Positions 1 through 51,780 of a stretch of DNA of 64,000 bases are shown one piece after another. Position numbers and translations under genes: made by a program. Below the pieces are notes generated by a model. It saw nothing but the letters and a program-made list of their open reading frames with translations, searched no databases and had not been told where the DNA came from. The stretch covers positions 8,897-72,896 of the forward strand of contig DATIGE010000021.1 in assembly GCA_035454885.1 (NCBI GenBank). The letters run 5' to 3'. Positions within the stretch are counted from its first letter, which is position 1; each line of letters opens with the position of its first letter. Origin of the DNA: a bacterium. GTDB lineage: Bacteria > UBA10199 > JACPAL01 > GCA-016699445.

Positions 1-2211
1 AATCTTCACCGCGGTCTCAAAGCGCCGCCGCGCGTCCTCAAGGCGGCCCTCCGCCTGGGCCAGGAGGCCCGAGCGGTTTTCGATTTCACCCTGAAGGAGA
101 GGGGAACCCTCCGCCAGGGGCAGGGCCTGTTTCAGATGGCCGTCCGCCGCCGTCGGATCCCCGGCGCGTTCCAGGAGCGTTGCGAGCATGACGTGCGCCC
201 GGGCGTGGTAGTTCTTGAGGGCGGGATGACGGTCGTGGTCGCCGGTCTCGATGGATTCGCTCAGGCGCGCGAGGGCCTCCTCCGTGCGGTCGGCGGCGAA
301 AAAGGTGATGCCCGTGTAGAGGCGGTGCTTGACCGTCTCGACGCGCGTGGCGTCGTCGCCCTTGGCGGAATACCAAGCGTCGTAGGTCTTGAGGGCTTCT
401 TCATAGCGTCCGAGGCGGTAGAGGGACGGGGCCTTGTGCCCGAAGACGATGGCGCGCTCCAGGTTGGTGACCGCGAAGGGGAGCAGGCGGTCGGCGAGGG
501 CGATGGTCTCCTCGAACGCGTTTTTTCCGAAGAGAAATTCCAGGGCGCCAAGGAGCCAGGCGCGCGCCGTCTCCGCGCGTCCGGCCTCGATCGCGTGACG
601 GACGATACGGACGGCGGCGGGCCCTTGCTCCGGTTTCGGATGATCCTTCAAAAGGGCGGAGAGCCAGGCGGCGTGGGCGTCTCGCATCCCCTCGGGTCCG
701 AATGCGGTCTCGAAGGCTGTCCGGAGGCCGGGGTGGGCCAGCCGCAGGCGGTGGTGTTCCTCGCGCGCGAGCGGCGACGTGACGAGTCCCGCGGCGATCA
801 GCTCCAACTCCGACCTCGCGAGGGCCTCGCCGTCTCCCGCCCAGGCGGCCTTCAATTCTCCGGCGCTCGCCGTGCCGGTCTCGGAGACCAGGAGGGCGAA
901 GAGCCAGGAGGTCTCGGGCCGGAGCCCCGCGACGCGCGCGGCCGCCGCTTCCTGAAAGTTCTTTGGGACCGCGAAGGCCTTGGCGCCCCGCCGGTAGTGG
1001 CGGAGGGCTTCCATGAGGAGCAGAGGCCTCCCGCCCGCCTCCCGCACGATGCGATCCGCCTCGTCCTTGGGGAGGGGATCGTCCTCGGTCGCCTTCAACA
1101 CGAGCTCAAGGGCGCGCTTCTTGGGGAGATCCTTGAGGACGACGGTGGCGGCTCGAGTCTCTTCGGCGATCCGCGCGATCCACGCCTTCGTTTCTCCGTC
1201 CGCCAGGTCCGAATCGTATTCGAGAAAAATCAGGGTTTGGGACTTGAGAAGACGGCGAACCTCCAGCCCGATCGCATTCCGCTCCTCGTTCGTCGTTCTC
1301 CGATGGACGTCGGGAAAGACGCGCGCCTCGCGCCCGCGGAGCTTCAGCCGCCACAGCGTTTCCTCCAAGAGGCGCGTGCGGCCGATGCCCGTCGGGCCCG
1401 TGACGATCAGGACACGCGCCCGGTCCTCGGCCTCGCGCAGGTCTTCCTCCTCCGGTCGCGGCACCCAGGGCGCCTTCTGCAGGATGGTTTGAGTCGTCTC
1501 CTCCGTGCTCAAGGGGACGGGCGTCTTGAGATGCAGGTTGAGCGCCTTGAGCGGCCCGAGCGCGGTCGCGAAACGCTCCGAGGGATTGGCCTTCATCAGG
1601 CGTTCGAGAATTTTCGCGAAAGGTTCGGGGAGTTTCCGTCCCTTGAGGGACTCGAAGAACGACAGGCCGAGGGCATAGAGGTCGCTCTGGGCGTCGTAAC
1701 GCCCGGCCTTGGCCTCCGGAGGCCAATAGGCGGGGGTGCCGAGGCCGGGGAGCCCGAAGTCGAGGAGCTTGGCCTCGCCCGAGGCCGTGACGAGGATGTT
1801 CGCGGGCTTGAGGTCCCGGTGCAGGAATCCCCGCGAGTGCAGGTAGTGCAGGGCGCGGCAGCAGCCGGCGAAGACCTTCAGGACGGTTTCGTCGGAAGCG
1901 CCTTGGGAGGCTTGGAGGGCTTCGTCGAGGGGGAGGCCCTCGACGTGCTCCATCACGTAGGCGGGAGGCGGGCCTTCCAGAAAATTTTCGATGCCGACCA
2001 GGTTCGCGTGGGAGAGGCGGATCAGGATCTCCGCCTCCGCCTTGAAAAGGGTGACGGAGGTGGCGGCCTTCGTGTCGAGGAGCCTCTTGAGCGCCAAGGT
2101 TCGCCCGGTCTCCCGGTCACGGACGAGAAAGACCTCCCCCCGTCCCCCCCGGCCCAGGGGTTTGAGAACTTCATAGCGAGGGGGGATTCCTGCAACGGAA
2201 AGAGCCGTCAC
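1..2211 (-). CDS. Ser/Thr protein kinase fused to a P-loop (STAND/AAA-like) NTPase and helical repeat region; partial, C-terminus runs off the window start
   Basis: Own translation of the minus strand starting at GTG (rc of 2209-2211). Sequence reads VTALSVAGIPPRYEVLKPLGRGGRGEVFLV...LALKRL...HRDLKPANILV...DFGL...GTPAYWPPE, which are canonical Hanks kinase subdomains. It is followed by a degenerate Walker-A-like GPTGIGRT motif and a long helical region. An in-frame TGA 13 codons upstream precludes a longer N-terminus. The plus-strand ORF 136..2244 in the track is its antisense artefact. Confidence 0.85.
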   Translation of the reverse strand, partial: MTALSVAGIPPRYEVLKPLGRGGRGEVFLVRDRETGRTLALKRLLDTKAATSVTLFKAEAEILIRLSHANLVGIENFLEGPPPAYVMEHVEGLPLDEALQASQGASDETVLKVFAGCCRALHYLHSRGFLHRDLKPANILVTASGEAKLLDFGLPGLGTPAYWPPEAKAGRYDAQSDLYALGLSFFESLKGRKLPEPFAKILERLMKANPSERFATALGPLKALNLHLKTPVPLSTEETTQTILQKAPWVPRPEEEDLREAEDRARVLIVTGPTGIGRTRLLEETLWRLKLRGREARVFPDVHRRTTNEERNAIGLEVRRLLKSQTLIFLEYDSDLADGETKAWIARIAEETRAATVVLKDLPKKRALELVLKATEDDPLPKDEADRIVREAGGRPLLLMEALRHYRRGAKAFAVPKNFQEAAAARVAGLRPETSWLFALLVSETGTASAGELKAAWAGDGEALARSELELIAAGLVTSPLAREEHHRLRLAHPGLRTAFETAFGPEGMRDAHAAWLSALLKDHPKPEQGPAAVRIVRHAIEAGRAETARAWLLGALEFLFGKNAFEETIALADRLLPFAVTNLERAIVFGHKAPSLYRLGRYEEALKTYDAWYSAKGDDATRVETVKHRLYTGITFFAADRTEEALARLSESIETGDHDRHPALKNYHARAHVMLATLLERAGDPTAADGHLKQALPLAEGSPLLQGEIENRSGLLAQAEGRLEDARRRFETAVKI

Positions 2212-2378
2212 TCCGGAAGGATAGCCTATTTTGCAGGGGGCTGAAACTCAATTGTGCAGGATTGCAATTTTGCTGAAAGTGGACGCGAAAATATTGTCCA
2301 CGGAGTGAACGAAATCCTATGCCCCGCTGCCTTTTGCCTCAACTTTGAAGGTGATCGTTCGAAGACGAGGATCTCAGT

Positions 2379-3566: not shown

Positions 3567-6500
3567 CTATTTCCCGACCACTTGAACCTGGAAGGCCATC
3601 GGCTCGGACGGGAAGCGGTCGACGACCTTGCCGTCGCGCGTGCTCACCACGTCGCCGTTCGCCTTCAAGACGTGGCCGGCCTCGTAGTAGCCGGCATATC
3701 CGAAATCGGGCTTCCGGCCCGTCACGCGCTCGTAGGCCTGGGCGTAGTGCCGGTGCTCGATGACATGGTCGGCGGGGACGATCTTGCGGAGCTCGGCGCG
3801 GATACGGGCTTCTTGGACCAGAGCGGCCTGGATCGCCTCCGGCGACTGCGTTCCCGTCTTTCTAATGATGTCCCGCACGATCCACATCGAGTTTAGGCCC
3901 TCCGCGAAACGGCCCATGACAACCACGTCCCCGTCGCGAAGGGGTTTTTCGGGGGAGGACTTTCCTTCCGGAGCCTGGAAGATGGCTTCTTTGGCGTCAC
4001 CCAGACGGATCACCGCCGCCTCAACGGCGCCGTTCCTGACGAAGGATGCCTGGTAGCCTTCGGCAACGGGGATGAGTTCCACGCCCGCCGCATCCAGCTT
4101 CGGTGCCCCCCCGCGGACGCTGCCGTCGGCCTTCAGAAAGGCCTGCTGGACATGGAGGCGGCCGCCGGGAACGACCTGGTCCAGGCCGTAACCTTGCCGG
4201 ATCCAATCGGACATCGCCGCCTGGGCCTCCGCGTCCGCCGTCCTCTGGCCAGGGGCGCGGCCCGAGCCTTCGATGGCGACCAGGATCGTGCGGCCGTCCT
4301 GACCTCTCACGCGAACGGACTGCCCCGGCGCGGCCGAAGGAGCGGGCGCGGGAGGGTAGCCCTGGTTGCCGGCTTGGAGTGCGGCGACGTTGGCGGATTG
4401 GGGGTAGGACGGCGCGATCTCATAGGAGCGTCCGTCGGCCTCGATCACGTCGCCCGGTTTGACGGCCATTCCATTCAGCCACTCGTACGTCATCGGCCGG
4501 CCGTTGACGGTGACCCCCCCGCGTGGGGTGCCGATCGGACCGTCGAAGAGGATCAACCCCCCGTTTCGCGTCGGCGCCACGACGAGTCGCGCCGGAGAGG
4601 ACGGAGAGTCCTGGACCGCGACCGGAGTGCCGTTGGCGTTCGGGACGATCGGCTGCGGCTTGGGCCGCGAGCCGCCCCAGACCATGCCGAGGACCGGGAT
4701 GGCGAGCGCCGCCCCCGAGACCAGGAGAGCGACCGACTGCGGGACCCCGTGAGCGGTGAGAAGGCCGTACAGACCCGCCGGGCCGCTGATGCTGTAGAGA
4801 GCGTCCTGGGGCAGGAGGGGGGACGGGGCGGCCGGGGCCTTGGCGCCCGGAGCGGCGTTCGCTTTGGCCTCGGACCCGATCTCAAAGCGCAGGGTGATCG
4901 TGCGGCCCGATTCCGCGGAAACCTCGAGAACCTTCATCCTCGGATGTTCGGACGATTGAAAGGACAGCCCTTTGGCTTTCAGGGCGTCGACGACCTTCTC
5001 GTATCCTTCGATCCCGGACGTGCGGATATCAATCGTGTCCAACCTGCCGTTCTGGCGGTTCACCTGGAAACCGAACTTTTCGGGGGAGCCGTTACGCGTT
5101 TTGACGTTGGTCCTGACCTGCAGAATCGACAGATCCCTCAGGAGCTGCTGCTCGACCTTCGAATTCGCGGGGGCGGGGGCCTTGGCTTCTTTCGCGCCTT
5201 TTCCTTCAACCTTCGTGGCCTCATCGGCCGATTTTTTCACGTCGACCCTGGTGACTTCCTCGCGCTTGGCCTCCTCAACGGCGGGGGTGACGGCCTTCTT
5301 CGGAGCAACCGCCTGCTTCGCGGCCACGAGGGCCTGCGCCGGAAGCGGATCGTTCTTGGGTTCGCTTTTCACGGGCTCCGGCGCTTGTTGGGGCGCCGCG
5401 GCCTTGGCCGGGAAGACCGTCTCGAAAACCCGGGGGCCGGCCGCGTACTTGAAGTAGCCGAAGACGTCCCGGATGACGGACTGTTTGAAGCCGCCACGGG
5501 GCGCCTGCGAAAGCCCCAAGGCGTGGCCGGTCTGGTTTCCTGCGACCATGCCGCCCATCGCGAAGCTGTGAGAGAGGACGAACTGGAGGCGGGGGGATTT
5601 CGCGGCGAAGGCCTCGCCGATGGTCCGCCCGCCCGCTCCGAATCCCTTCATGAAGCCCAGCGAGATCAAATTCGCGCCGTAGGATTTCAAGAGGTGATCG
5701 GCGGAAAAGACCTGCGAGGCGTCGTGGGCCGAGGCCTGGTAGAGCGTGTTCATGCCCCACAGGGCGTTCGCCTCGGCCGCGAAACCGGCCCCGATGGCGG
5801 CGTATCGCGCCTTGGTGACGGCGATTCCCGCCTTGCGGAGGAAGCGGTAGGCCTTGAAGGTGGCGCTGCGACCGATTTTGGCGGCCCCGCCCATGATCGC
5901 CATGGCGGCCAGATCATCGGTGCCGGTGGTCCTGATCTCGTCCCAGATGAAACCGGCGATTGTCTTGTTGCCGGTCTCCAACTCCGTCATTTTTTCGCCG
6001 CACTTGGCGGCGAACGCTTCGTCGCCGGAGGTCGCCTCGAGCAAACCGTAGAGGCCGTAGGCCGTCTTCGCGGCGCCGTCCATGATCGTGAGGTGGTCGG
6101 CGTTCTCGTAAAGGTGGTTCGCGAAGTCCCCGGCCGCCTCGGCATCGCCGGACTCGAGGGCGTCGGTGTATCCGACCAGGAAGCTCACCGCGTCCAGGCG
6201 GTAGCCCGTGCCCCAGCCGGTGTTGCCGACGTCGTTCAAGAGCGTCTGCGCGGCGCCCGAGAGCCGTCCGTCCCCCTCGTCGACGACGGCCTGAAGGGCC
6301 GCCTTCAGCGTCTTGGCGTCGCCCTTGTTGAGTTTCTTTTCCACGGCGTCCAGGACGTCCCGCTGCAGGTTCCACTTGTCGTGGCAACGGCTGATGCCGG
6401 TCTCTTCGCCCCCGCTTGCCGCCCAGGTGGCGAAGCCGGCCGTGTGGCCCAGAATCGAATTGTGGTCGGAGATTTCCTGCCTTTCGCGCTCGTCGATGAA

Positions 6501-7541
6501 GTTCTTCCAGACCTCGAGCGCCTGCTTGTTCACGTCGCGGCGCCGGTCGCCCTCCATGCGCGAGACGATGGCCTCGGCCTCGGGGAAGTCCGAGCGGATC
6601 TTTTTCAATTCCACTTCGGCCGTATCGATCTCGCCCTGGGCGAGGAGGCTCAAGGCCTTGTAGAGCGGGGCGCGCTTGCTGACTTCCTCGTAGGGGCTCG
6701 ATTCCGCATAGGCGGCCGCCACGTCGTAGGACCGTGAGGCCAGGCTGTTCAGATTGGCCCGAAGCGCCTCCTGGTTCTCGGGATCATCGACGGTGACCGA
6801 CCCCAGGATCATGTAACGGTTGGCCATGGCCTCCACTCCCTCGAGGACCTGCAGGCCTTCCTCCTCGGAGGGAACGTCGGCGAGCACCAGCTCATTTTCC
6901 AGGTCTTGGAGGCTGTTGTACTGTTCCTGGATGTCGTTGTTCACGAGGACGGCCTCGTCGGCGAGCAGGAGCTGTTGAAGACCTTTCACATCCTCGGCGT
7001 CGCTCTCGTTGTCGGCGCTTCCGTCGCCGTCGGCGTCCAAGACGCTTAAGTCCATGCGGTTGGCCTGGACGCGAAGCTCGAGGACGTCTTGATCGTTGGG
7101 GTTTGTCTCCAGATACGCCGAGAAGGCCTGCGCGGCCCCGTAGCCGTTCCCGACGGCCAGGTAGGCCTTGCCCAATTGAAGGTAATAATCCTCGGTCCCG
7201 ATCGGGTCGATCTTCCCGGCCTTTTCGAGGGCCTGGACCGCGAGTTGGGGATCTTCCGTATCGGGGTTCTCGACGACGTAGGCGCCCAGGTTCACGAGCT
7301 GGAACCAATCGTCGGGCAAGTCGTACGCGGCCTGGGCGTTGTCGTTTGCGGGCTTGAAGAGGGGATGCTGGACGCCGTTGTTCCGCAGGACGACGTCGAG
7401 GGCCTGCAGCGTCACGCCCGCCAGGGGGCAGAGGCTCATTAGGGCCGCGTTCTGGGACGCGCCGATCGCCGCCTCCGCCTGCTCGGCCGCCGGTCCCGCG
7501 ATCAACGGATTCATCGCTAGAGCCAATCCCCAAATTCCCAT
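3567..7541 (-). CDS. large secreted/membrane-anchored hypothetical protein (1324 aa)
   Basis: N-terminal signal peptide (MGIWGLALAMNPLIAGPAAEQAEA). Acidic D/E-rich segments, a Lys/Ala/Pro-rich linker and one predicted TM helix (LLVSGAALAIPVLGMVWGG). Plausible RBS (aaggagg) about 8 nt upstream of the ATG. Candidate sigma-54 promoter upstream. Confidence 0.75.
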   Translation of the reverse strand: MGIWGLALAMNPLIAGPAAEQAEAAIGASQNAALMSLCPLAGVTLQALDVVLRNNGVQHPLFKPANDNAQAAYDLPDDWFQLVNLGAYVVENPDTEDPQLAVQALEKAGKIDPIGTEDYYLQLGKAYLAVGNGYGAAQAFSAYLETNPNDQDVLELRVQANRMDLSVLDADGDGSADNESDAEDVKGLQQLLLADEAVLVNNDIQEQYNSLQDLENELVLADVPSEEEGLQVLEGVEAMANRYMILGSVTVDDPENQEALRANLNSLASRSYDVAAAYAESSPYEEVSKRAPLYKALSLLAQGEIDTAEVELKKIRSDFPEAEAIVSRMEGDRRRDVNKQALEVWKNFIDERERQEISDHNSILGHTAGFATWAASGGEETGISRCHDKWNLQRDVLDAVEKKLNKGDAKTLKAALQAVVDEGDGRLSGAAQTLLNDVGNTGWGTGYRLDAVSFLVGYTDALESGDAEAAGDFANHLYENADHLTIMDGAAKTAYGLYGLLEATSGDEAFAAKCGEKMTELETGNKTIAGFIWDEIRTTGTDDLAAMAIMGGAAKIGRSATFKAYRFLRKAGIAVTKARYAAIGAGFAAEANALWGMNTLYQASAHDASQVFSADHLLKSYGANLISLGFMKGFGAGGRTIGEAFAAKSPRLQFVLSHSFAMGGMVAGNQTGHALGLSQAPRGGFKQSVIRDVFGYFKYAAGPRVFETVFPAKAAAPQQAPEPVKSEPKNDPLPAQALVAAKQAVAPKKAVTPAVEEAKREEVTRVDVKKSADEATKVEGKGAKEAKAPAPANSKVEQQLLRDLSILQVRTNVKTRNGSPEKFGFQVNRQNGRLDTIDIRTSGIEGYEKVVDALKAKGLSFQSSEHPRMKVLEVSAESGRTITLRFEIGSEAKANAAPGAKAPAAPSPLLPQDALYSISGPAGLYGLLTAHGVPQSVALLVSGAALAIPVLGMVWGGSRPKPQPIVPNANGTPVAVQDSPSSPARLVVAPTRNGGLILFDGPIGTPRGGVTVNGRPMTYEWLNGMAVKPGDVIEADGRSYEIAPSYPQSANVAALQAGNQGYPPAPAPSAAPGQSVRVRGQDGRTILVAIEGSGRAPGQRTADAEAQAAMSDWIRQGYGLDQVVPGGRLHVQQAFLKADGSVRGGAPKLDAAGVELIPVAEGYQASFVRNGAVEAAVIRLGDAKEAIFQAPEGKSSPEKPLRDGDVVVMGRFAEGLNSMWIVRDIIRKTGTQSPEAIQAALVQEARIRAELRKIVPADHVIEHRHYAQAYERVTGRKPDFGYAGYYEAGHVLKANGDVVSTRDGKVVDRFPSEPMAFQVQVVGK

Positions 7542-7581
7542 GTGCCGACCTCCTTATGGACGTTGTGAACAGGGAGGAAAG

Positions 7582-7599
7582 AGCAAGGTGGATGCCAAG
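7582..7599 (-). promoter_or_regulatory. candidate sigma-54 (RpoN) -24/-12 promoter for the 1324-aa gene
   Basis: The minus strand reads cTTGGCATccaccTTGCTc, i.e. GG-N10-GC with TGGCAT and TTGCT, about 42 nt upstream of the ATG. Coordinates approximate to within a few nt. Confidence 0.5.
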
Positions 7600-7633
7600 A
7601 AAAAGTGAATAAAATCAGTGTGATGACTTGAGT

Positions 7634-7670
7634 CTTGCAAACACGGTTGCAATTTTATGCAAGAATGCAG
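7634..7670 (-). promoter_or_regulatory. candidate upstream activator (enhancer-binding protein) site, TTGCA-rich
   Basis: Top strand cTTGCAAacacggTTGCAATTTTATGCAAgaatgcag. On the gene strand the proximal element is TTTGCAAGACTCAAGTC, located 35 nt upstream of the -24 TGGCAT. Confidence 0.4.
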
Positions 7671-7684
7671 TGGGCTCAGGATTC

Positions 7685-8317
7685 TTATTCGCAGGGCAGG
7701 ACAACACAGCGGATCACAATGGTTTTTCTCAGGCCGACGTAGTCGCCCAAATTCGGATTCGGCGAATAGTTCGCAGAGACGCCGTAATTTGCCTGGTACG
7801 CGCTGCCGCCGCTCTCGGGCGCTCTATAGGTCGTGGAAACATTGGTGTTGGCCGTGTATTCGTCCGTTTCCCCGGGTTCGGCGGTCGCGCTGATCTGGTC
7901 GATTGCCGTGTATTGAATCTCGCCGTCGACGTAGACGTGGACGGGGCCCGGGTTCTCCGAAGGCTCGAAGATTGTATCGGAGACCCCCGCGGCCTCGTTG
8001 ACCGTCGGAGAAGCGGGGTCCGCCAAGGACGGGTTGCCCCCCTCATTTTCTTCGGCGGGCACCTCTGCCGCGGGGACCTCTTCGACGGGAAGCTCTTCGG
8101 GGGGAACGAAACCATCGTCCGTTCCCTTGAACGGATTTTCTTCCTTCGTCGGGCCGATGATCGTCTCACGAACGGTTTCGTGGGCCTCTCCGGCGGCGGG
8201 GGATTCGGAGGCGGCGGACTCGATGGCCTCCGCAAGGTCCTGCGGCGCTCTTTGGCTCGAGCACGCGGAGGCCGAGGCGATGAGAACGAAGAGGGCTAAG
8301 GTCGTTGCATTGCGCAT
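7685..8317 (-). CDS. acidic Pro/Glu-rich lipoprotein (about 210 aa)
   Basis: Internal Met MRNATTLALFVLIASASAC|SS gives a textbook type-II signal peptide and lipobox. The longer 315-aa ORF in the track lacks any signal and overlaps the promoter, so the internal start is preferred. AGGAG RBS about 7 nt upstream. Confidence 0.65.
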   Translation of the reverse strand: MRNATTLALFVLIASASACSSQRAPQDLAEAIESAASESPAAGEAHETVRETIIGPTKEENPFKGTDDGFVPPEELPVEEVPAAEVPAEENEGGNPSLADPASPTVNEAAGVSDTIFEPSENPGPVHVYVDGEIQYTAIDQISATAEPGETDEYTANTNVSTTYRAPESGGSAYQANYGVSANYSPNPNLGDYVGLRKTIVIRCVVLPCE

Positions 8318-8342
8318 GAAATCTCCTTGTCGTGGATTTCCA

Positions 8343-8359
8343 GAGCAACCCGAGTGCCA
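8343..8359 (-). promoter_or_regulatory. candidate sigma-54 -24/-12 promoter for the lipoprotein
   Basis: The minus strand reads tTGGCACtcgggTTGCTc, a near-consensus TGGCAC-N5-TTGC, about 27 nt upstream of the ATG. Confidence 0.55.
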
Positions 8360-8396
8360 AAAAATGCCGAATGAACTCGCGCCGGCGACTTCGTTC

Positions 8397-8436
8397 TTGC
8401 AAATTCTGCATGCACTTGATGCAAAATTGTATTGCC
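8397..8436 (-). promoter_or_regulatory. candidate upstream activator site, paralogous to the one at 7634-7670
   Basis: The gene strand reads ATTTTGCATcaagtGCATGCagaaTTTGCAAGAACGAAGTC. The proximal 17-mer TTTGCAAGAACGAAGTC lies exactly 35 nt upstream of the -24 GG, the same spacing as at the neighbouring promoter. Confidence 0.4.
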
Positions 8437-8526
8437 GTCGCGTACCCGGTACGCGTCTAAGTGATTGAACGAAAAGCGATTCAAGGAGAATGCCGCGACG
8501 GCACGCGGTTTGCTCTCTCAGTGAAC

Positions 8527-8982
8527 ATGCCCGATCTCTTTCACTACACCGACTACCGCCACTACCTCCGCGACTGGGTCGCCGCCGCGCGCGCCAACAG
8601 GAAGGGATTCTCCTTCCGCATCTTTGCGGCACGGGCCGGGTTGGGCGCTCCGGGCTATTTGGGGATGGTGATCCAGGGAAAACGGAATCTGGGCGAATCC
8701 GGCCTGGAGCGGTTCATGAACGGCATGAAGTTGATGGCCGCGGAAAGGCTCTACTTCCGGAACCTCGTGCTCTGGAATCAGGCGGAGACGGATGGAGAGA
8801 GAAGCCTCTACGAGGGAAAGCTCGCCTTGCTCCGCAAGTCCCGCAAACTCAGGCCGGCGGTCGCGGACGATATCCGGGGCAGGATCGAACGTTTCCGCGG
8901 GGAGATCGCCGGCCTGCTGGCCCCCGACTTCACGCCGGAAGAGGCCGCGATGCTGGCGAGACAGTACGTGCCGGAAGAATAG
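8527..8982 (+). CDS. TIGR02147-like (Fibrobacter/Myxococcus paralogous family) hypothetical protein
   Basis: MPDLFHYTDYRHYLRDWVAAARANRKGFSFRIFAARAGL...GYLGMVIQGKRNL resembles the N-terminal signature of that family from memory. Start chosen at the internal ATG; the GTG at 8461 is the alternative. Divergent from the sigma-54 lipoprotein gene. Confidence 0.45.
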   Translation: MPDLFHYTDYRHYLRDWVAAARANRKGFSFRIFAARAGLGAPGYLGMVIQGKRNLGESGLERFMNGMKLMAAERLYFRNLVLWNQAETDGERSLYEGKLALLRKSRKLRPAVADDIRGRIERFRGEIAGLLAPDFTPEEAAMLARQYVPEE

Positions 8983-10473: not shown

Positions 10474-11607
10474 ATGATGGGTGGAAAACTATCCTTTTTG
10501 GCCTTTCGCGTCATCGGCTTGCTGGCCGCAGCGGCGGCCGCGTGGCCGTTGGTTTCCTGCGAACTCCAGCAGGGCGGGGACCAGTTGCACGGAATGATCA
10601 ACATCGCCTTTCCCTCCACCGCGGTGTGTCAGGCCCAGCAGAAACTGATCAATTTTCGGAACGTGAGCGGGACGGAGATCGTCATCGAAGGTGCCGCCAT
10701 CTCCGGCGGGACGGACCCGGAAGGGAACTTCAACCTCCTGGGCGTCAAGATCAACGCGGAGACCGTGCCCGCCACCACGGGATTCTTAAACGACGTCCAT
10801 GTCCCCTCGGGGGCCGACTACGCCTTCATCATCTCTTATACGCCCCGGAGCGAAAACACGGAGCACACGGCCATCCTCGACATCGCCTACCGGGCGCCCA
10901 GGGAAGGCATCGTGCAGATCTCGCTCTACGGGACGTCGACCGGGCGCGCCCCCGTCTGCCCGACGGGCGGAGGCAACACCGGAGGCGGCAAGGGCGACCT
11001 GAACGGGGCGGTGACGATCACCATCGACCGCATCGCCCTGGTGTCCAGCGCGCTCTCCCAGCCCATCAGCACCGATCCGGAAAATACCGTCACGCCTTAC
11101 AATCCGGTCTCGGTTCCGATCTCCTTCGATGCCGCCGCGAACGGCGTGGTCCTTCCGACGATCGGAGAGGACGTTCAGTTCCTCCTGCCGCGCACGAAGA
11201 CGAATCCCTTGTTCAACCTGATCAAGAGCGAGACCCTCGTCACCACCGAAGCGGACGGCTCCGGCACTTACGGCGACGACGGGTCCATCGAGATCCCGAA
11301 CGTGCCCATCCACCTGACGGAGTGTTTCGACACGAATTTCGACGTGACGCTGACGACGGGCGAGGTGACGATCCCCAACAACCTGCCCAAAAACCTCCTC
11401 CGGACGGCCGGCTTTGACCTGACGGACGACCAGACGAAGGTCTTCGGTTCGCCCGTCGACGCGACGACCTTGGAGACGACGCTCATCGGCATCGCGACCT
11501 TCACGGGAACCACGGGGGCCAGTTCCTGCACGGTCGCCCAGTCCATGGAGGCGACGGCCGGCGCGGTCATCATCAAGGCGACGATTCACCTTCCGGAAGG
11601 CGCCTAA
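10474..11607 (+). CDS. hypothetical lipoprotein; first gene of the secreted five-gene block
   Basis: Signal peptide with LVSC lipobox. Two domains joined by a Gly-rich linker (GGGNTGGGKGD). No known domain. Confidence 0.6.
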   Translation: MMGGKLSFLAFRVIGLLAAAAAAWPLVSCELQQGGDQLHGMINIAFPSTAVCQAQQKLINFRNVSGTEIVIEGAAISGGTDPEGNFNLLGVKINAETVPATTGFLNDVHVPSGADYAFIISYTPRSENTEHTAILDIAYRAPREGIVQISLYGTSTGRAPVCPTGGGNTGGGKGDLNGAVTITIDRIALVSSALSQPISTDPENTVTPYNPVSVPISFDAAANGVVLPTIGEDVQFLLPRTKTNPLFNLIKSETLVTTEADGSGTYGDDGSIEIPNVPIHLTECFDTNFDVTLTTGEVTIPNNLPKNLLRTAGFDLTDDQTKVFGSPVDATTLETTLIGIATFTGTTGASSCTVAQSMEATAGAVIIKATIHLPEGA

Positions 11608-11740
11608 GCCGGAAATCCAGCCCTCGTGCCGCATCACGTCAAAAAATGTGTCTTTTTTGGGACAGTTACGCTTCTTTTATCGGCAACCTTTGCCGTTCGC
11701 TGTCGATAAGGCGGTTAGGATAGGCACCCCTTGCCGGGGG

Positions 11741-14700
11741 ATGACTCAAGGGAGGTCGAGTTTGTCTCGGATTCTTAAAGGCATCGTCGGTTTCCTTCTC
11801 GCGCTTTCCATCGTTCAAGTCACGGCCTGCGGCGTGGGTGGCGAAGACCTCCCGTTCGTCTTCGGCGACGGCACCGACGGCGGCTCCGGTTCCGAAAGTC
11901 CTCCTCCGACCGGCGGCGGGACGACCGGCGGCACCACGGGGGGCACGACCGGCGGGACCACGGGCGGCACGAGCTCCTGCACGACCGACGACCAATGTCC
12001 CTCCGGACAGGTATGCAATACGACTTCGGGACAGTGCGGCCTCCCGGGCGGCGCCTGCGAGGTCGATTTCAACGCGTCGCTCGCCCTCAAGATCGACGCG
12101 GTGAAGTCCACCTCGGGCGGCCACTTCGACAGCCCGCCTTCTTGCTGCGAATACGCGGACGTCGACGGCGGTTCGACGTGCCCCACGATCGCCGCCGGCG
12201 ACCTGGACCACTTCCTCCAGGCCCCCTCCGAGAACACGGATCTCTATTGTTGCAGCGCCGACAGCGGGGCCGAAGTCTCCGGGCATCCGGAGCTCTTCTG
12301 CGACACGGAGAACCGCCACGGCGGTCTCCCAGAGCTCGCCGTCACGCGCTGGCCGGCCTCGGCCGGAGGCAAGATCCGGATGAAGTTCCTGGTCTCGCCC
12401 GACGGCTCGTCCTGTGTGGCGTCCATGGTCCGGGATCAATTCCCCGAATTCAAGCTGGAGAACACGGCCCTCGACGCCTCGCTCATCATCAACGCGGGCG
12501 AAGATTACCGGACGCTCCCGCCCCTCCCGTCCCAAGATTTGAATCCGGCGGAAATCACTTCGCCCTGCACCGTGACCACCGACGGCTCGGGGAACGTTTC
12601 GGTCGCGATCGACGCCCTGCCGTTCCGGTTCCTGACCAAGATCTACAGCAATTACACCCAGTGCATCTCCGGCAGCACCAATCCGGGGCCGGTCAATCCA
12701 GCGGAATGCCCCTCGGGTCCGTTCAGCACGTTCTTCTTCGAGGCGGGCGTCGGAGTTCCGGACGCCAACACGATCCAGGTCATCCCCGGTCTCAGCCAAT
12801 CGCCCTTAAGCCTCACCACCGGCTCGCGCTCGCAGGCCGTCGTCGACGCCACCAAGCAGAACGGGGCCATGGACATCACCGGCGAGCCCATGCATTACGA
12901 TGCCGGATCCTCTCAGACCCGCATGACGATCGTCACGGCCTTCGCCTTCCCGGACGATACGTCGACCGGCGTCTCCCGCGACGACAACTCCGGGGCCGGG
13001 CAGCTTCTGGCGGAATTAGGCAAGGCGATGCTGACCGCCGAGATCAAGGGCACGGTCACGAAGACCAACGGAGGGTCCATCCAGACCCTGGCCGATCTGA
13101 CCACCAATTGCGGCGGCGGGGGAGGAACGACCGGCGGCACGACGGGCGGGACCACGGGCGGCACGCCGTTATGCACGGCGGACTCCCAGTGTCCGGCGGG
13201 CCAGGTTTGTAATCTCTTGAACGGCCAGTGCGGCGTCCCCGTGGCGGGACTGAAGCTCGAGGAGATCGGGCCGGCCGCGCCGAACGCCTCCGTTGCCCAA
13301 CTTCTGCCCGCCGATGCGGCGCCGGCGGTGAATTTCGGTGAAACCCTTCTGAGCATCCAAACGAAAACCAAGCTTTACCGGATCTCCAACGTGGGCACCA
13401 AGGACATCGTCGTCAACGGAATCCACGTGGCGGACGTCAAGCAGAACTTCCGTCTGGGTTCCGTCTACCAGGGTTCGAGTTTCGCCGCCCGAACCTGGAA
13501 GGTCGGCCAGGATCCCTGGACGCTCGCCCGGGGCGGAGCGAGCGATTTCTTCTTCTTCCTGAACTACGGACCGTTCGGCAAGGTGGGCGGGGAAGGGAGC
13601 ACCCGCGCGGACGCCGGTTCCCTCGTCATCACCACAGACGCGGGCGTCTTCAACGTGAACCTCACCGGCACGGCCAAGAAGGACTCGCGTGCGACGCTCG
13701 CCCTTTACGTCGAAGACCCGAGCCGCTTTACGGTCACGGGCGCTTCGGACCCGGACCTGAAGGACGTCGATGACGGCGGGACGACCCGGCACCTGTACCT
13801 CGCCAAGAACAAGCTCTTCAGCTTCCGCCAGGACGGCACGCCGAGGGCGGTCTACCTCTTCAACAACGGCACGGCGGGTGGAATCGACGACATCGTGGTC
13901 CAGCACCTGAAATTCAACGCGGACGCGGGTGGAAAGATCGTCTTCGCGCCGGCCGCGGCGTCCGACGTCACGGCCTGTTTCGCGGCGCTTCCGGAAGCCA
14001 CCACGGCCTGCGCCACGCTCGCGGCGGCGGGGACCAACAAGATCAAGCTCGGAACGATGACCTTCACCCCGGCGGCCGGTACCTACGCCGTTTCCGAGGG
14101 CAGCCTGGACGTGAAGGCCATCTCCAAGGCGGCCTCCGCCACCGAGGGAGTTCCGCCCATCATCGGCGGGATGCCGACCAACGTGAACGACAATCCGCTG
14201 GTCAACTTCGGGCTCAAGGGCGCGAGCGGGGCCCCGAGCGGAACCTTCGATCTCAAGGTTCACCGCCTGATCGCCGGCTTCTCGAACAAGATCAACCAGG
14301 GGCTCCAGAAGACGCTCATCGTTTCCGGCTCGACCAAGGGCATCTTGAAGCGCTTCAACGACGGGCCGGGCACGGACGTGACTCTCGACCTGTTGAAGGA
14401 GGTCTTCAAGATCGAGGACGGTATGGAGCTCGACGCCGTCACCGGAGAGGCGACCCTGAAGCGGATCGTCACGGCCGTCGACGCCGATCCGAACAATCCC
14501 GCGAGCCCGTCGGCCATATCGGGCCTCCGCCTTTACAACGCGCCCGGCTCGCAGCCGGCCAACACGGAATACTTTGCGGAGTGCAAGACCGCGGGCACCC
14601 ACAACTGCGCCTTCTTCTACCTGTATATGGGCGACTGGGCCGGCTCGATCACGTCTTCCAGCTGCAACGGGGGCTCGAAATTCCCCGTCATCCAGAGCTA

Positions 14701-15286
14701 CACCGGCACCCAGGCGCAGCGCGACGCGCTCTTCGCCACCGTCATGAAGCCGGATAACGCGACGGAATTCGCCTGTCTCTCCGGCGCCGACGGCATGAAG
14801 GACGAGACGGCGGGCACTTTCGACCCGGTGACCGGCGAGATCACCTTCCGCGACGTGGCGGTGCGGCTCTACGCCCCGAACGTCCCGGCGCTCTCGAACA
14901 ACGACGTCGACGCCACGATCCGTCTTTCGCTGACGACCCAATGCGTGGGCCAGGACATGGTGCCGGACACGGCCTCCAAGGCCCAGTACCTTGTGCCGAA
15001 CAACACACTCAACGACACGAGCTTCAACAACACCCTGATGCCGGAGAACCCGCTCCTTCCGTACGTCGACCAGCCGGGCACCGTTTGCGGCATCCCGCGG
15101 ACCCTGCACGGTCGCGGAATGTTCCAGACCGATACGACGAACACGCTCGACAACGACACGGATCCGGACGGTCTCAATTTCAACGGGTTCGACCTGGCCG
15201 GCGTGGGCCGGAACGTGACGAGCCAGACGAGCGTGAGTCCGGCGAACATGTACATCATCATCAAGGCCGAGGTGGGAGAGTTTTAG
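11741..15286 (+). CDS. giant surface lipoprotein (about 1181 aa) with (GGTT)n linkers, Cys-knot mini-modules and Ig-like beta domains
   Basis: Start at MTQGRSSLSRILKGIVGFLLALSIVQVTAC (lipobox VTAC). (GGTT)n linkers occur twice. The Cys-knot module occurs twice: CTTDDQCPSGQVCNTTSGQCG and CTADSQCPAGQVCNLLNGQCG. The Ig-like (choice-of-anchor/ASH-like) region reads ISNVGTKDIVVNGIHVADVKQNF. The protein ends in ...EVGEF. Confidence 0.7.
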   Translation: MTQGRSSLSRILKGIVGFLLALSIVQVTACGVGGEDLPFVFGDGTDGGSGSESPPPTGGGTTGGTTGGTTGGTTGGTSSCTTDDQCPSGQVCNTTSGQCGLPGGACEVDFNASLALKIDAVKSTSGGHFDSPPSCCEYADVDGGSTCPTIAAGDLDHFLQAPSENTDLYCCSADSGAEVSGHPELFCDTENRHGGLPELAVTRWPASAGGKIRMKFLVSPDGSSCVASMVRDQFPEFKLENTALDASLIINAGEDYRTLPPLPSQDLNPAEITSPCTVTTDGSGNVSVAIDALPFRFLTKIYSNYTQCISGSTNPGPVNPAECPSGPFSTFFFEAGVGVPDANTIQVIPGLSQSPLSLTTGSRSQAVVDATKQNGAMDITGEPMHYDAGSSQTRMTIVTAFAFPDDTSTGVSRDDNSGAGQLLAELGKAMLTAEIKGTVTKTNGGSIQTLADLTTNCGGGGGTTGGTTGGTTGGTPLCTADSQCPAGQVCNLLNGQCGVPVAGLKLEEIGPAAPNASVAQLLPADAAPAVNFGETLLSIQTKTKLYRISNVGTKDIVVNGIHVADVKQNFRLGSVYQGSSFAARTWKVGQDPWTLARGGASDFFFFLNYGPFGKVGGEGSTRADAGSLVITTDAGVFNVNLTGTAKKDSRATLALYVEDPSRFTVTGASDPDLKDVDDGGTTRHLYLAKNKLFSFRQDGTPRAVYLFNNGTAGGIDDIVVQHLKFNADAGGKIVFAPAAASDVTACFAALPEATTACATLAAAGTNKIKLGTMTFTPAAGTYAVSEGSLDVKAISKAASATEGVPPIIGGMPTNVNDNPLVNFGLKGASGAPSGTFDLKVHRLIAGFSNKINQGLQKTLIVSGSTKGILKRFNDGPGTDVTLDLLKEVFKIEDGMELDAVTGEATLKRIVTAVDADPNNPASPSAISGLRLYNAPGSQPANTEYFAECKTAGTHNCAFFYLYMGDWAGSITSSSCNGGSKFPVIQSYTGTQAQRDALFATVMKPDNATEFACLSGADGMKDETAGTFDPVTGEITFRDVAVRLYAPNVPALSNNDVDATIRLSLTTQCVGQDMVPDTASKAQYLVPNNTLNDTSFNNTLMPENPLLPYVDQPGTVCGIPRTLHGRGMFQTDTTNTLDNDTDPDGLNFNGFDLAGVGRNVTSQTSVSPANMYIIIKAEVGEF
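11917..11985 (+). repeat. imperfect tandem 12-nt coding repeat (GGC GGS ACS ACS)n encoding a (GGTT)n linker; second copy at about 13120-13180
   Basis: ggcgggacgaccggcggcaccacggggggcacgaccggcgggaccacgggcggcacg translates to TGGTTGGTTGGTTGGTTGGT. The same motif recurs 1.2 kb downstream in the same gene. Confidence 0.7.
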
Positions 15287-15287
15287 T

Positions 15288-16301
15288 ATGGCATATCGTC
15301 CCGTAGGCATCATGACGGATTGCGAAAATGGATACGGGGTGGCCCTCGTCCAGGACGGGGACAATCCGTCCGTTCGCGCGGACGTGGACCTCAATGCCAC
15401 CGACGGGTCCGCGACGCCGCGGATCCGGGTCGATGGAAGCTGGGTCAACGTGGACGATGCCTTCGTCTCGGCCTACCGCGGGATGACGTCCGCGAATTCC
15501 ATGTCCGCCGATTCCCGGACTCAGGCGTGCGGGGCCATCAATGATGCCGTGGATCCTGGCATCGGCCGGGTCCATCCGTTTTGGTTGGTCACCGTGCCGA
15601 CGCTCTCGATCGGCGGCGCTTACCTCGTCAACCGGATCGCGCGGGCGGACCTCCTGACCGCCTCCAGCGACCCGGGAACGGTGGGGACCATTCTCGACTG
15701 GGGCTACGGCGGGACAAATGCCCTGTACAGCGCCACCCTGACGCCCATGACCCGCCACTCCGACGCCGGTTGGGCCTACGGGATGGGCGGCGTCAACGCC
15801 GGGGCGGGGCTCGCCTTCTTGATCGCCTCTTTCGCGCAGCCTTCCGGACGGGGAACGCCCGAGTTTTCGACCTCTCTGTCGCTCCTCACCAACGGAGGCC
15901 TGGTCTTTGTTTACGGCGACCGCGTGAGCGGCCGTGACCCCGCCCGTTTCTACACCGGTTTCGGCCTCCAACTCGCCTTGGGCGGGACGGCGCTGGGGCT
16001 TGGATTGGGCGGTGTCGGAAGGCGTCCGAGCGTTTCCTCGACGGACATGTACGCCCCGGATGGAATGGCCGGCGCCAGGGGCGTGCCGGGGAATCCTTAT
16101 GAAGGGACGCGTTTCCCGGGGCTCGACCGCGACCTGACGTGGATCGGAGTCGGTCATCTCTTGGGCGCCGGCGTCAATCTGGTGGATTATCTCTGGATCA
16201 GCCGCGCCGGAGAAAACCGGCCGGAGGAGGCGCCAACAGTGCATGTGGGCTTTTCACCCGTCCCCGGCGGCGGCGTGGGGTCGGTGTCCGGATCCTTTTA
16301 A
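15288..16301 (+). CDS. hypothetical protein (337 aa), translationally coupled to the upstream giant gene
   Basis: ATG lies 1 nt after the upstream stop. No classical signal peptide. Gly-rich with alternating hydrophobic stretches and a C-terminal ...GSVSGSF, suggestive of a beta-barrel outer-membrane protein C-terminal Phe (inference). Confidence 0.5.
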   Translation: MAYRPVGIMTDCENGYGVALVQDGDNPSVRADVDLNATDGSATPRIRVDGSWVNVDDAFVSAYRGMTSANSMSADSRTQACGAINDAVDPGIGRVHPFWLVTVPTLSIGGAYLVNRIARADLLTASSDPGTVGTILDWGYGGTNALYSATLTPMTRHSDAGWAYGMGGVNAGAGLAFLIASFAQPSGRGTPEFSTSLSLLTNGGLVFVYGDRVSGRDPARFYTGFGLQLALGGTALGLGLGGVGRRPSVSSTDMYAPDGMAGARGVPGNPYEGTRFPGLDRDLTWIGVGHLLGAGVNLVDYLWISRAGENRPEEAPTVHVGFSPVPGGGVGSVSGSF

Positions 16302-16310
16302 AGGAGAATC

Positions 16311-19300
16311 ATGAAGCGTCTGGTCTCAAAACTGGCCGGTTGGATGGTGGCGGGAATGATCCTCGGGGTTTCTTCCCAGGCCCATGCCGCCCTCGTCTGC
16401 CCCGATGCCCACCAGCCCGCCGGCACCGCCTGGTGCGACGGGGACGCGAGCCGCTTCCAGGCCGACACGCTCTGCGTGGCCGAGCCGGTCGACGGCCCGC
16501 CGGCGTCCTCGATCGACGAGGAAGTCGTCGGCGCGGGCGTCTGCATCAACGGCAAGTTCAAGACCGCCGATCAGCTGGAGCAGGTCGCCGACTTCGTCGT
16601 TTCCTACGATTTTCCCGCCGACCCCTTGCTTGGCCCCTCCGGCCTTTTCGTGCCCGAGCTGGAGACCCTGGCCGCAACCGGCGAATTCATGACGACGGTC
16701 CCTCTGGAAGACGAGGGCGTCTTCGACATCGTGATCCAAGGCCGGGTGCTCACCGACGACGGGGCGTTCACCGACGTCTCCATCGCGCGCCGCGTCCTGC
16801 GGGTTTCCAAGCCGCATCTGACGGTCACCCGCGCGCGCGTCGGCGGGGCGACGGCCGACTGCTCGGCCTCCGATCCGTCCTGCTTCGGCCTGCACGAACT
16901 CGAGGGCGACAGCGACGGCGACGGGATCTGCGACGGTCCCGTGGCGATCCCGAATCTCTGCGCCGCCGGCCCGGACACGACCGACGACAACGGTCCGGAC
17001 GGAGAGCCCCACACGATGGAGGTCACGCCTCCGGCGGTGCGTTCCAAGACGGTCGAGCTGTGCGTGAACAGCCATGACGCCGAGCCGCCCGCGGGCAATT
17101 CGATCCTCGTGCGCGCGGTCAATACGATCACGGACGATTCCGTGACTCCGGCGAAAGAGGTCCTGGTGGATGCGAGCTGCGCCGAGGCGGGTTCGGACGT
17201 CTGCCAGGTGTCCTCCGATTCCTTCTGCCCCGGAGGCTTCCGCCTCACGGTGCCGCTCGGGCACGGCAGGAACGAGATCGAACTCTTCGTCAACAACCTC
17301 GTGACGGGCTCCGACATCGGCGCCGCCCAGCAGATTTCCGTGGTTCCCTTCGACGTCGATCTGAAGGGTCCCGATCTCTGCGTCCGTTACCTGGACGAGG
17401 CGGGCCACGCGATCGACGACGTCGACGGCAAATCCATCACCGCCGACGAAGCGGCCTCCGTCACGGTGGACGTGACCTTGGGCGCCTGTGGCGGTGAGGA
17501 AGAGAACGTGCCGGAGACCAACCCCACGAGCTGCGACAACTCAAATCCGCCGGCGTGCGGCACGGCGGCGGTCTGCCTGCAGTCGAACGACGAGAGGGAA
17601 GGGGACAACCTCGATCCGAAGTTCGTCGCCATGTGCAAGCGCACGGTGGACGGCAAGACGCACTTCCAGGCGGCGTTCCCCGAGCTCCGCTTTCCCGTGA
17701 ACACGGCGACGATCAAGGCCGTGGACGCTTTGGGCAACCAGACCTTCGAGACGCGCGCCTTCGGCTACGGCAACGTCCGCCCGCTCTTCGACGCCGAGAA
17801 GAAGTTCGACCTGAAGGCGGCCATGGTCGACAACGGCGTGGGCGGCTTCGTCAAGGCGGGCTTCGTCAAGGACGAGGTCCTGCCGCTCCTCCTCAAGGTG
17901 GTGAACTCCAAAAAATTCGTCGACGACTTCTTCTTCCAGCTCATGGACCCGCGCCAGCCGAGCGACCAGGAAATCTCCTGCCTCAAGTCGATCGAGGACG
18001 ACGCCAACTGCACCTTCGGCCACCTGGCAAGCAAGGAGCGCGTGGTCGCGATCAAGACCTTCTGCGACGCCGACTGCAGCGACGAGATCGGCTCCATCGA
18101 AATCCCCAGCCTGTATTTCCTCAATCAGAACCGGTTGAGGGTGCAGATGAAGGTCAAAGGCTTCCACGGCCGGGCCGAGATGTACACGATGCGCTTCATC
18201 GATTCGGACAACGACAGCATCGTGGACACGGAGGACGACGACGCCGACAACGACGGCATCTGCGACAAGGAATTGCCGGCGATCGGCGTCTGCGACGACG
18301 AGAACCACGACGGCGTCTGCGACAAGGAGATCTCCCTCACCGGGACCTTCGGCAAGGGCCTGAACGCCTCCCGCAAATGCGTCCTCGACAAGAGTGTTCC
18401 CAGGGGAAGTTGCCCCGACGTCGATGCCGGGGACGAGCGCTACTTCGGCTGCTCCGACCAGGACGATGACAACGACGGCATTCCGGACTCGAAGGATCTG
18501 CCGGGACGGCTTGTTCAGGACCCCGACTTCGCGACCCACGTCATCCCGGTCAAGTTCACCATGAAGGAGATGGTCTTGAACCTCGACGTCTCCTTTGAGA
18601 AGTCCGCCGACGGCCGGTTGCATGTCGGGCTCACCAACGCGCCCGACCGGAAACTCATGGAATTCATCGCGGACGACAAGTTCCCGATCGAGTTCGACTG
18701 CGACAAGGACGTCTCCGAGCTCTACCAGGGCGGTTACGCCGGCCAGGAAGGGAACGGCCGGAACCTCTGGATCGACAGCGAGGTTTGCCGCGCCCTCGAG
18801 AACCTGAACCCGGTGGCCGACCAGGCCCTCTTCGGGGAAAAACCGCGCAAGCAGCAGAGCACCCGCAAGCAGCTGGAATGCACGGTGGAGGCCCTGGTCC
18901 GCTGCAGCATCCCCAAGCGTCTGGACGCCACGCTCGACCGCTTTGAGAACGACAAGGTCGCCCCGGTTTCGCTCACGCTCTTGGACAACCGCTTCCACAT
19001 GGACTTCTTTGCGCCCTTGGGCTCCGCCGGCGTGACGGTCGACCCGCGGGGCTTGGGCTTCAAGGGCAAGGGCCTGCTGATCCCCGCAGGCGTCTCCGAG
19101 AAAAACGACGAGGCCGAGCGCGACGGAAAAGAATTTCTGAATAACCTGCCCGAGGAGTTCAAGACGCCCAAGTTCGGGCCCCTCTCCAAGACGGGCGACG
19201 ACCACATGCTCGACCCGATCGACGCCGCCCAAGGCATGGGGAACGAGGTCAATCTGGCGCTCAACGAAGAGACGGTCAATTCGGCCCTGCACTCCGTGGG

Positions 19301-20411: not shown

Positions 20412-20421
20412 GGGAGTCTGT

Positions 20422-47301: not shown

Positions 47302-47325
47302 CACGCTGTGGATGGGGAGATTTCC

Positions 47326-48708: not shown

Positions 48709-48843
48709 TCCCTCCAAAACCCTCTCAAATTGATAAAGCCTGATAAGGCCTGGGTGCTGATTGACCCGATTTCTCGGCACCGCGGCGGGGCCGTTTCCTT
48801 ATTTTTCAGGCCCTTAACGACGATGCCCGTGCTCATGACGCAA

Positions 48844-48861
48844 TTGGTAAACGTCTTGCAC
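48844..48861 (+). promoter_or_regulatory. possible sigma-54-type promoter upstream of Cys-rich protein 2
   Basis: TTGGTAAacgtcTTGCAc, i.e. GG-N10-GC with a perfect -12 TTGCA, about 40 nt upstream of the ATG at 48899. The -24 element is imperfect. Confidence 0.35.
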
Positions 48862-48898
48862 TAGCCCCCGATGACGAATCACAAAGTTGGGGGGAGTT

Positions 48899-51721: not shown

Positions 51722-51780
51722 GGTAAAGGGCATTCCCATCATCATAATACAGAAGCAGAAGTGCAAGCCCGGGGGGGCTT

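Follow-up and report, generated by a model that had tools for sequence, protein, structure and literature searches.

Here we describe positions 7542-8526 of a 64,000-nucleotide (nt) stretch of contig DATIGE010000021.1 (GenBank assembly GCA_035454885.1; source locus tag VLJ37_04800); the whole stretch is referred to below as the window. This region holds a gene for an acidic lipoprotein of 210 amino acids (aa) together with the noncoding sequence on both of its sides, and it lies between the starts of a minus-strand gene for a 1324-aa protein and a plus-strand gene for a 151-aa protein with a helix-turn-helix (HTH) domain. An interpretation made earlier from the letters of the window (the sequence-only reading) had placed near-consensus sigma-54 elements (-24/-12) upstream of both minus-strand genes, and we find both where it put them; we call them P1 (1324-aa gene) and P2 (lipoprotein gene). 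A third putative sigma-54 core, P3, which is missing from that reading, points in the opposite direction, towards the 151-aa gene, and shares the candidate enhancer of P2, a cluster of TGCA motifs. The elements of the three putative promoters are as follows.

7625..7669, minus strand: P1 enhancer, with four TGCA motifs at -72, -64, -54 and -42, counted from the T of TGG
7641..7625, minus strand: P1 17-mer, TTTGCAAGACTCAAGTC, inside the P1 enhancer, with the promoter-proximal TGCA within it
7598..7624, minus strand: P1 spacer, 27 nt, AT-rich, with a T-tract adjoining the -24 element; 21 of the 27 nt are kept in the orthologue
7598..7624, opposite strand: IHF-like site AATCAGTGTGATG within the P1 spacer, one mismatch
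7597..7582, minus strand: P1 sigma-54 core, TGGCATccaccTTGCT, an exact match to TGGCAY-N5-TTGCW, preceding the 1324-aa gene
7541, minus strand: ATG of the 1324-aa gene, 40 nt downstream of the P1 core and preceded by the ribosome-binding site TAAGGAGGT
8387..8431: enhancer shared by P2 and P3, with TGCA at -64, -55, -51 and -42 and TACA at -72 relative to P2; relative to P3, the TGCA motifs lie at -79 to -101
8403..8387, minus strand: P2 17-mer, TTTGCAAGAACGAAGTC, within the shared enhancer
8359..8344, minus strand: P2 sigma-54 core, TGGCACtcgggTTGCT, preceding the 210-aa lipoprotein gene
8317, minus strand: ATG of the lipoprotein gene, preceded by the ribosome-binding site AAGGAG
8499..8514, plus strand: P3 core, CGGCACGcggtTTGCT, one mismatch to TGGCACG-N4-TTGCW, seen after relaxing the first base

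The pattern TGGCAY-N5-TTGCW occurs twice in the 64 kb, at P1 and at P2, compared with 0.08 matches expected, and none of 100 shuffles reached two. With at most one mismatch to TGGCACG-N4-TTGCW allowed, P2 and P3 (one mismatch each) are the only matches window-wide (0.35 expected), P1 having two mismatches to this form. In all three matches GG and GC are 10 nt apart, and all three cores are intergenic, directed towards a gene and kept in orthologous loci; matches with three mismatches are scattered, many of them intragenic, with no or one TGCA upstream. As the sequence-only reading held, both minus-strand start codons follow a ribosome-binding site, the 17-mers of P1 and P2 agree at 14 of 17 positions, and further TGCA half-sites lie upstream, making up a cluster of four at each promoter. 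Its claim that 17-mer and core are identically spaced at P1 and P2 also stands, but the distance that it gave, 35 nt, is wrong, since 27 nt separate the 17-mer from the T of TGG and 28 nt from the GG. The likeness of the two promoters does exceed chance, with 44 of 75 upstream nt identical in an ungapped comparison (p about 2.5e-7); identity to P1 and P2 over the core-anchored 75 nt is about 30% for the lineage's other sigma-54 promoters. With up to two mismatches, the 17-mer pattern matches the P1 and P2 sites and nothing else in the window. The upstream regions of P1 and P2 are also the densest TGCA clusters of the whole window (four in 50 nt), a density that just 3 of 200 Markov simulations reached even once, and only three noncoding intervals in the window contain at least four TGCA per 125 nt: those of P1, of P2/P3 and upstream of a kinase gene at the left end. 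No Rfam family was found in the promoter region, and a terminator scan likewise gave no relevant match there.

Comparison with other genomes shows where in these promoters conservation is concentrated. Using the 1324-aa protein and its C-terminal domain as queries, we found a single full orthologue in a collection of 5.8 billion proteins (P0002, 46% identical), plus two fragments; the whole orthologous locus is present on the contig of P0002 (L002) and on a JGI contig (L011) that overlaps it and emerged from a DNA-pattern scan. A block of 91 nt that opens with the first TGCA and closes with the core can be aligned gap-free between the two genomes, its identity being 81% at P1 and 85% at P2, although identity at four-fold degenerate sites is only 53-71% and the P1 flanks (30-34% identity, large indels) cannot be aligned. 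This conservation is strongest in the cores and TGCA motifs: core identity is 90-100% across genomes (18/20 for P1 in L011/L002, 19/20 for P2 and 100% for P3 in L011), the TGCA positions of the P1 enhancer are unchanged in L011, where the far-upstream flank is only 30% identical, and the P2/P3 enhancer is the most conserved stretch of its intergenic region in L011 and is partly kept in L036 and L037. P1 and P2 are 57-60% identical to each other over the 91 nt, ungapped, both within and between genomes, which means that the copies are old and have been maintained independently. The 17-mer as a unit is less conserved than a look at the window alone would suggest: in the second genome its P1 and P2 copies agree at only 10 of 17 positions, and the invariant part is TGCA.GA....A.TC.

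More distant loci retain the same layout. In a third genome (L037/L038), P2 is kept as TTTACAAGAATGGAGTC, 27 nt and TGGCACccgcgTTGCT, with the core at the same place. In L033, a P1-like promoter (TGCAAGACTCGACTC, 27 nt, AGGCACG-N4-TTGCT) stands before the gene for a 1510-aa FHA paralogue of the 1324-aa protein (about 30% identical) and contains sequence resembling the P1 spacer; its TGCA motifs lie at -86, -64 and -42, of which -64 and -42 are common to P1, P2 and their orthologues. The small gene upstream of this paralogue has a P2-like promoter, which is also matched by an nhmmer profile of the block, a profile that finds nothing else in the window. Anchored on the core, the P1/P2/L033-type subclass shows 49-60% ungapped identity over 75 nt, compared with about 30% for other TGCA-type promoters. 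A scan of a genome collection (596 Gb, without the source metagenome-assembled genome) for TGCAAGA-N4-AGTC-N24-30-TGGCAY-N5-TTGC returned three chance matches in unrelated taxa, and a metagenome scan with a gap of 16-38 nt returned 25 matches, 24 of them by chance and one at the orthologous locus (L011). With two copies in the window, and only the orthologous locus and chance-level matches in the collections, the 17-mer is not the common dispersed repeat that the sequence-only reading had named as a possible objection to its proposal.

Clustered half-sites, as are found in enhancers of the NtrC family of bacterial enhancer-binding proteins (bEBPs), accompany related cores as well. Intergenic cores with at most two mismatches (window, L031, L032 and L033) have at least three TGCA in the 125 nt upstream, and good cores from a larger set (window, L011, L031, L032, L033, L036, L037 and L039) have two to five within about 125-130 nt, mostly at least three, the cases with two being L037 P2, L037 P3 and the L039 core at 4218. 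L033 alone holds four TGCA-type sigma-54 promoters, including a divergent pair with one common cluster. Ten non-redundant upstream regions contain 33 TGCA, compared with 2.7 expected from the locus background or 10.9 from a Markov model (p = 8e-25), and TGCAA/TTGCA is their top 5-mer (30 compared with 1.4 expected, p = 3e-29), figures that are subject to some selection bias, the promoters having been picked by the sigma-54 pattern and then inspected for TGCA. At P1 and P2 the half-sites are locked in register at -42 and -64; these 22 nt correspond to two helical turns, so that proteins bound there would occupy the same face of the DNA. A single dyad was also considered as a description of the enhancer and was rejected because the spacings between TGCA motifs are too variable. 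IHF-like sites (WATCAR-N4-TTR, at most one mismatch) occur in 7 of 13 spacers, compared with 2.0 +/- 1.3 in shuffles, and P1 has such a site, as has the P3 of the window when two mismatches are allowed; IHF is enriched but was rejected as a universal spacer element, being absent at P2. In promoters of genes of the type of the 151-aa gene, which belongs to the TIGR02147 family (L031:9930-9945, L032, L033 and L011), the IHF-like sites have zero or one mismatch and keep to one position, -40 to -42 relative to the T of the core.

The third promoter differs from P1 and P2 in how it is placed relative to its gene, and two further features lie nearby.

8527..8982, plus strand: gene for the 151-aa TIGR02147-like protein, which consists of an XRE/HTH_31-type N-terminal domain only
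8439..8455: perfect 17-bp palindrome, CGCGTACC-g-GGTACGCG, between the shared enhancer and the P3 core

The P3 core ends 12 nt ahead of the ATG at 8527, with 13 nt from GC to ATG, and we found no Shine-Dalgarno sequence in between. Taking the C of the GC as -12 puts the A of the ATG at about +3, so that the P3 mRNA is predicted to be essentially leaderless and would have to be translated as such. The 21 homologues of the 151-aa protein allowed eight more loci to be read, and a 13-nt core-to-ATG layout is seen in nine of ten informative homologous loci, the sole exception being L039 with its 37-nt leader. The P3-type core stands exactly 13 nt (GC to ATG) from the start codon in L031, L032, L033, L036 and L037. 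The N-terminal extensions of P0007, P0008 and P0014 contain the peptide GTRFA, which is the translation of a sigma-54 core, GGCACGCGnTTTGC; the annotated starts of these three proteins are probably wrong, and for the mis-called P0008 and P0014 the peptide implies the same layout as at P3. A literature search turned up no published case of a sigma-54 promoter that specifically serves a leaderless transcript. The 151-aa protein matches NCBIfam TIGR02147 (E 1.4e-24, 87 bits compared with a cut-off of 50) over positions 1-109 of the 272 of the model and thus lacks its C-terminal (DUF4423-type) half; it is one of a short TIGR02147-like subfamily of about 150 aa with 21 members, and 6 of 20 family members match HTH_31 (best E 2e-6). 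The literature on TIGR02147/DUF4423 yielded one incidental mention and no functional study. L011 and L037 retain the palindrome in part, and L036 lacks it; a second regulator may bind there.

A candidate for the activator is suggested by the left end of the window, where a kinase gene follows a third TGCA cluster.

1..2211, minus strand: Ser/Thr protein kinase (Pfam Pkinase, E 8.5e-34) that also has STAND-NTPase and TPR regions and is cut off by the window edge
2232..2273: three clustered TGCA, with TTGCAATTTTGC among them, immediately before the kinase gene

The sequence-only reading had noted the TTGCAATTTTGC element beside a kinase and the lack of a convincing core; the element exists (2262..2273), has no sigma-54 core, and the gene to its left is indeed a Ser/Thr kinase, which probably starts with GTG at 2211. 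This kinase is 44% identical to, and collinear with, a 910-aa kinase of L033 that has the same upstream TGCA-cluster layout, and the gene directly after the L033 kinase encodes a 571-aa bEBP with the domain order GAF-Sigma54_activat (E 5e-66)-HTH_8. Sigma54_activat genes lie beside the TIGR02147-like gene in L032, L033, L039 and L040; the Pkinase(-TPR) and GAF-Sigma54_activat-HTH_8 parts form separate genes in L033 and are fused in L032, L039 and L040. The kinase-bEBP loci extend over L032:1-4269, L039:4376-8881, L040:713-4792 and L033:4931-9342, with proteins of 1359-1501 aa that unite a eukaryote-like kinase and a bEBP. Because related contigs encode Sigma54_activat proteins, sigma-54 itself is implied in the lineage. 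We infer that the bEBP gene of this genome lies just beyond the left edge of the window, and the cluster at 2232..2273 may be an autoregulatory operator of a kinase-bEBP operon. A separate observation concerns L040:4820-4951, where the core AGGCACaatgcTTGCA is accompanied by an inverted repeat, TGTCAT-N19-ATGACA, instead of TGCA; this suggests that the paralogous kinase-bEBP system of L040 has a different enhancer specificity.

We therefore think it probable that region 7542-8526 contains three sigma-54 promoters with TGCA enhancers that answer to one kinase-linked bEBP. This extends the central proposal of the sequence-only reading, sigma-54 promoters with one common upstream activator site, which is supported by the conserved, in-register cores and block, by the retention of P2 in L037 and by the P1 layout in L033. 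In such an arrangement, P1 would drive the 1324-aa TPR/FHA-like gene, P2 would drive the lipoprotein gene, probably with read-through into the 1324-aa gene, and P3, on the opposite strand, would yield a nearly leaderless mRNA of the short TIGR02147-type HTH gene. The three to five TTGCA/TGCAA half-sites per promoter would form the enhancer for an NtrC-family bEBP, with one enhancer common to P2 and P3; an oligomer of this protein would loop over the AT-rich, T-tract or IHF-like spacer to the closed complex of RNA polymerase with sigma-54 and open the promoter using ATP. The most likely activator would be a GAF-AAA+-HTH_8 protein adjoining or fused with a Ser/Thr kinase, the left-end kinase would belong to such a pair, and the cluster before its gene would serve autoregulation.

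Several observations weigh against this model, in addition to the selection behind the enrichment figures. Neither rpoN nor a bEBP gene lies within the 64-kb window, and the loop of the L033 bEBP reads GAFTHA and not the canonical GAFTGA. The L040 core at 4936 has no TGCA upstream at all, and TGCA is thus not universal in the wider family. Distances from one TGCA to the next range from 4 to 23 nt, so that no exact dyad can be defined; the enhancer is unusually near the core, with its proximal site about 40 nt upstream of the -24 element; and the P2 spacer has no IHF-like site.

Among the other ways to read this region, one accepts the cores as sigma-54 promoters but takes the TGCA cluster and 17-mer for operators of the adjacent TIGR02147/XRE-type HTH protein, acting as auto- or co-regulator, while the bEBP binds elsewhere (for instance at the 8439-8455 palindrome) or acts from solution. 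The HTH gene is encoded right beside the TGCA sites, its own promoter has a TGCA cluster in every lineage examined, its family has an XRE/HTH_31-type DNA-binding domain, and a separate conserved palindrome lies between the cluster and P3; moreover, the portion of the Cereibacter sphaeroides work considered here offers a precedent in an Xre-family regulator expressed from a sigma-54 promoter (PMC11999139). We nevertheless regard this account as unlikely, given that TTGCA/TGCAA half-sites are typical of the Fis-type HTH_8 domains of NtrC-family activators and that the clusters are positioned like enhancers even far from any TIGR02147-like gene (L033 16558, L033 17695 and L032 5131). The kinase/bEBP operon, too, has a TGCA cluster in front of it, both in the window and in L033, and the palindrome is unconserved in L036 and absent at P1.

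Two accounts remain. If the promoters were of the sigma-70 type, TTGCAA would serve as the -35 hexamer with a weak -10 element about 18 nt downstream, and the GG-N10-GC pattern would be fortuitous; TTGCAA does resemble TTGACA, and GATTTT or GATATT stands 18 nt downstream at P1 and in its orthologue. A consensus scan of 7300-8700, however, gave no sigma-70-like promoter, P2 has GAGTTC at the corresponding -10 place, P3 has no TANNNT near the ATG, and the three near-consensus sigma-54 cores, far more than chance would place within 1 kb, are the best-conserved positions, all of which makes this reading very improbable in our judgment. Least probable of all, we believe, is that P1 and P2 are alike for no regulatory reason, through neutral duplication of an intergenic segment or as copies of a small dispersed repeat or miniature inverted-repeat transposable element. 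The ungapped 57-60% identity over 91 nt is what a duplication would give, but this duplication predates the split of the genomes, since which each copy has stayed at 81-85% identity even though synonymous sites have come close to saturation; conservation of the block is centred on the cores and TGCA, the block is found nowhere else in the window, and the scans of the 596-Gb genome and metagenome collections returned the orthologous locus and chance-level matches only.

The bEBP-dependent arrangement that we favour can be compared with several known systems. Classical systems of sigma-54 with NtrC-family enhancers include glnAp2/NtrC and, for a divergent pair that shares one enhancer, zraP-zraSR/ZraR. 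Like glnAp2, the promoters described here have a -24 GG/-12 GC core, clustered upstream activator sites and an AT-rich or IHF-like spacer; P2 and P3 resemble zraP-zraSR in having one enhancer between two divergent cores, and the activator gene of the relatives carries GAF (sensory), AAA+ and Fis-type HTH domains, as in NtrC-type systems. In contrast to glnAp2 and zraP, the proximal enhancer site precedes the -24 element by about 40 nt, which puts it at roughly -66 from the predicted start, the half-sites are irregular, the presumed input is a Ser/Thr kinase instead of a histidine kinase, and the evidence here comes from sequence. In Myxococcus xanthus, sigma-54 regulons involve bEBPs tied to Ser/Thr-kinase and FHA signalling. 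As there, eukaryote-like kinases, FHA/PP2C-type proteins and sigma-54 activators are linked, and many envelope and signalling genes are under sigma-54; unlike in M. xanthus, the kinase is fused or adjacent to a GAF-type bEBP, and the targets include a short TIGR02147-type HTH gene whose promoter is placed for a leaderless transcript.

The half-sites themselves are closest to those of the NtrC-family bEBP LuxO, which in chromatin immunoprecipitation sequencing data binds TTGCA/TGCAA half-sites such as ttgcaatttgcaa and whose sites upstream of the Vibrio qrr small RNA genes read TTGCA-N3-TGCAA (PMC10328515). Both systems have the same half-sites, A-T-rich centres and sigma-54 promoters downstream, and TGCAATTTTGCA and TTGCAATTTTGC are one base of spacing away from ttgcaatttgcaa. 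Compared to the N3 of LuxO, however, the spacings here are N2, N4, N5, N6 and longer, each promoter has several sites, the candidate activator carries a GAF instead of a receiver domain, and the lineage is unrelated. We therefore rejected membership in the LuxO type of site, for which the exact N3 spacing is lacking, and see in the likeness a functional analogy. Finally, the portion of the Cereibacter sphaeroides report considered here describes an Xre-family regulator expressed from an RpoN3 promoter (PMC11999139); a sigma-54 promoter and its activator would likewise drive a small XRE-type HTH regulator at P3, in a two-step cascade, but the protein family differs, and a fixed 13-nt core-to-ATG layout does not appear in that portion of the report. 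Our literature searches gave no direct counterpart of a kinase-bEBP/TGCA module.

These comparisons raise the possibility, which we put forward only tentatively, that the loci represent an undescribed, conserved signalling module, in which a Ser/Thr kinase is coupled or fused to a GAF-type sigma-54 activator that binds TGCA enhancers and thereby turns on three kinds of target gene. The targets would be large membrane TPR-FHA-PP2C-like proteins, small envelope proteins and a short TIGR02147/XRE HTH regulator. Its less usual features are the register-locked, promoter-proximal enhancer and the sigma-54 promoter positioned for a leaderless HTH transcript. Such a module would provide a testable regulon signature, a TGCA cluster with a sigma-54 core, for a lineage known only from metagenomes, would tie this signature to a kinase-coupled enhancer-binding protein and would give the uncharacterised short TIGR02147-type HTH proteins their first regulatory context. 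The fixed distance from core to ATG would make these promoters a clean natural case for asking if the sigma-54 holoenzyme produces leaderless mRNAs. None of this overturns the current understanding of sigma-54 regulation; it would be a regulatory unit of an ordinary type, from an uncultured bacterium that has hardly been sampled.

The two minus-strand genes encode the following proteins.

3567..7541, minus strand: 1324-aa protein with N-terminal TPR (Pfam TPR_14), a hydrophobic segment in its interior and strong conservation in the C-terminal region
7685..8317, minus strand: 210-aa acidic lipoprotein with the lipobox ASASAC

The 1324-aa protein had been labelled as secreted, for which we found no support, and it is not obviously so. 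It is collinear with the 1510-aa TPR-FHA-PP2C-like paralogue of L033 at about 30% identity (E 5e-41), and this paralogue carries FHA and a weak PP2C_2 match; because the C-terminal region of the 1324-aa protein had no significant match among PDB sequences, its own FHA/PP2C-like nature is drawn solely from homology to the paralogue. Where the paralogue has DGMGGH, the 1324-aa protein has EGSGRA, which suggests that it is a degenerate (pseudo-)phosphatase. Pfam and NCBIfam searches gave no family match for the 210-aa lipoprotein, whose orthologue in L011 is only 43% identical.

Elsewhere in the window, positions 10474-21387 hold a run of five open reading frames (321 to 1366 aa) with high GC content at third codon positions and without a Pfam match, one of which (1212 aa) has a Myxo_Cys_RPT repeat (TIGR04201). 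Positions 45259-53133 encode two Cys-rich Dicty_CTDC-repeat proteins, each followed by an OmpA-family gene, and the TGC codons of these repeat genes give rise to the only TGCA clusters in coding regions of the window.

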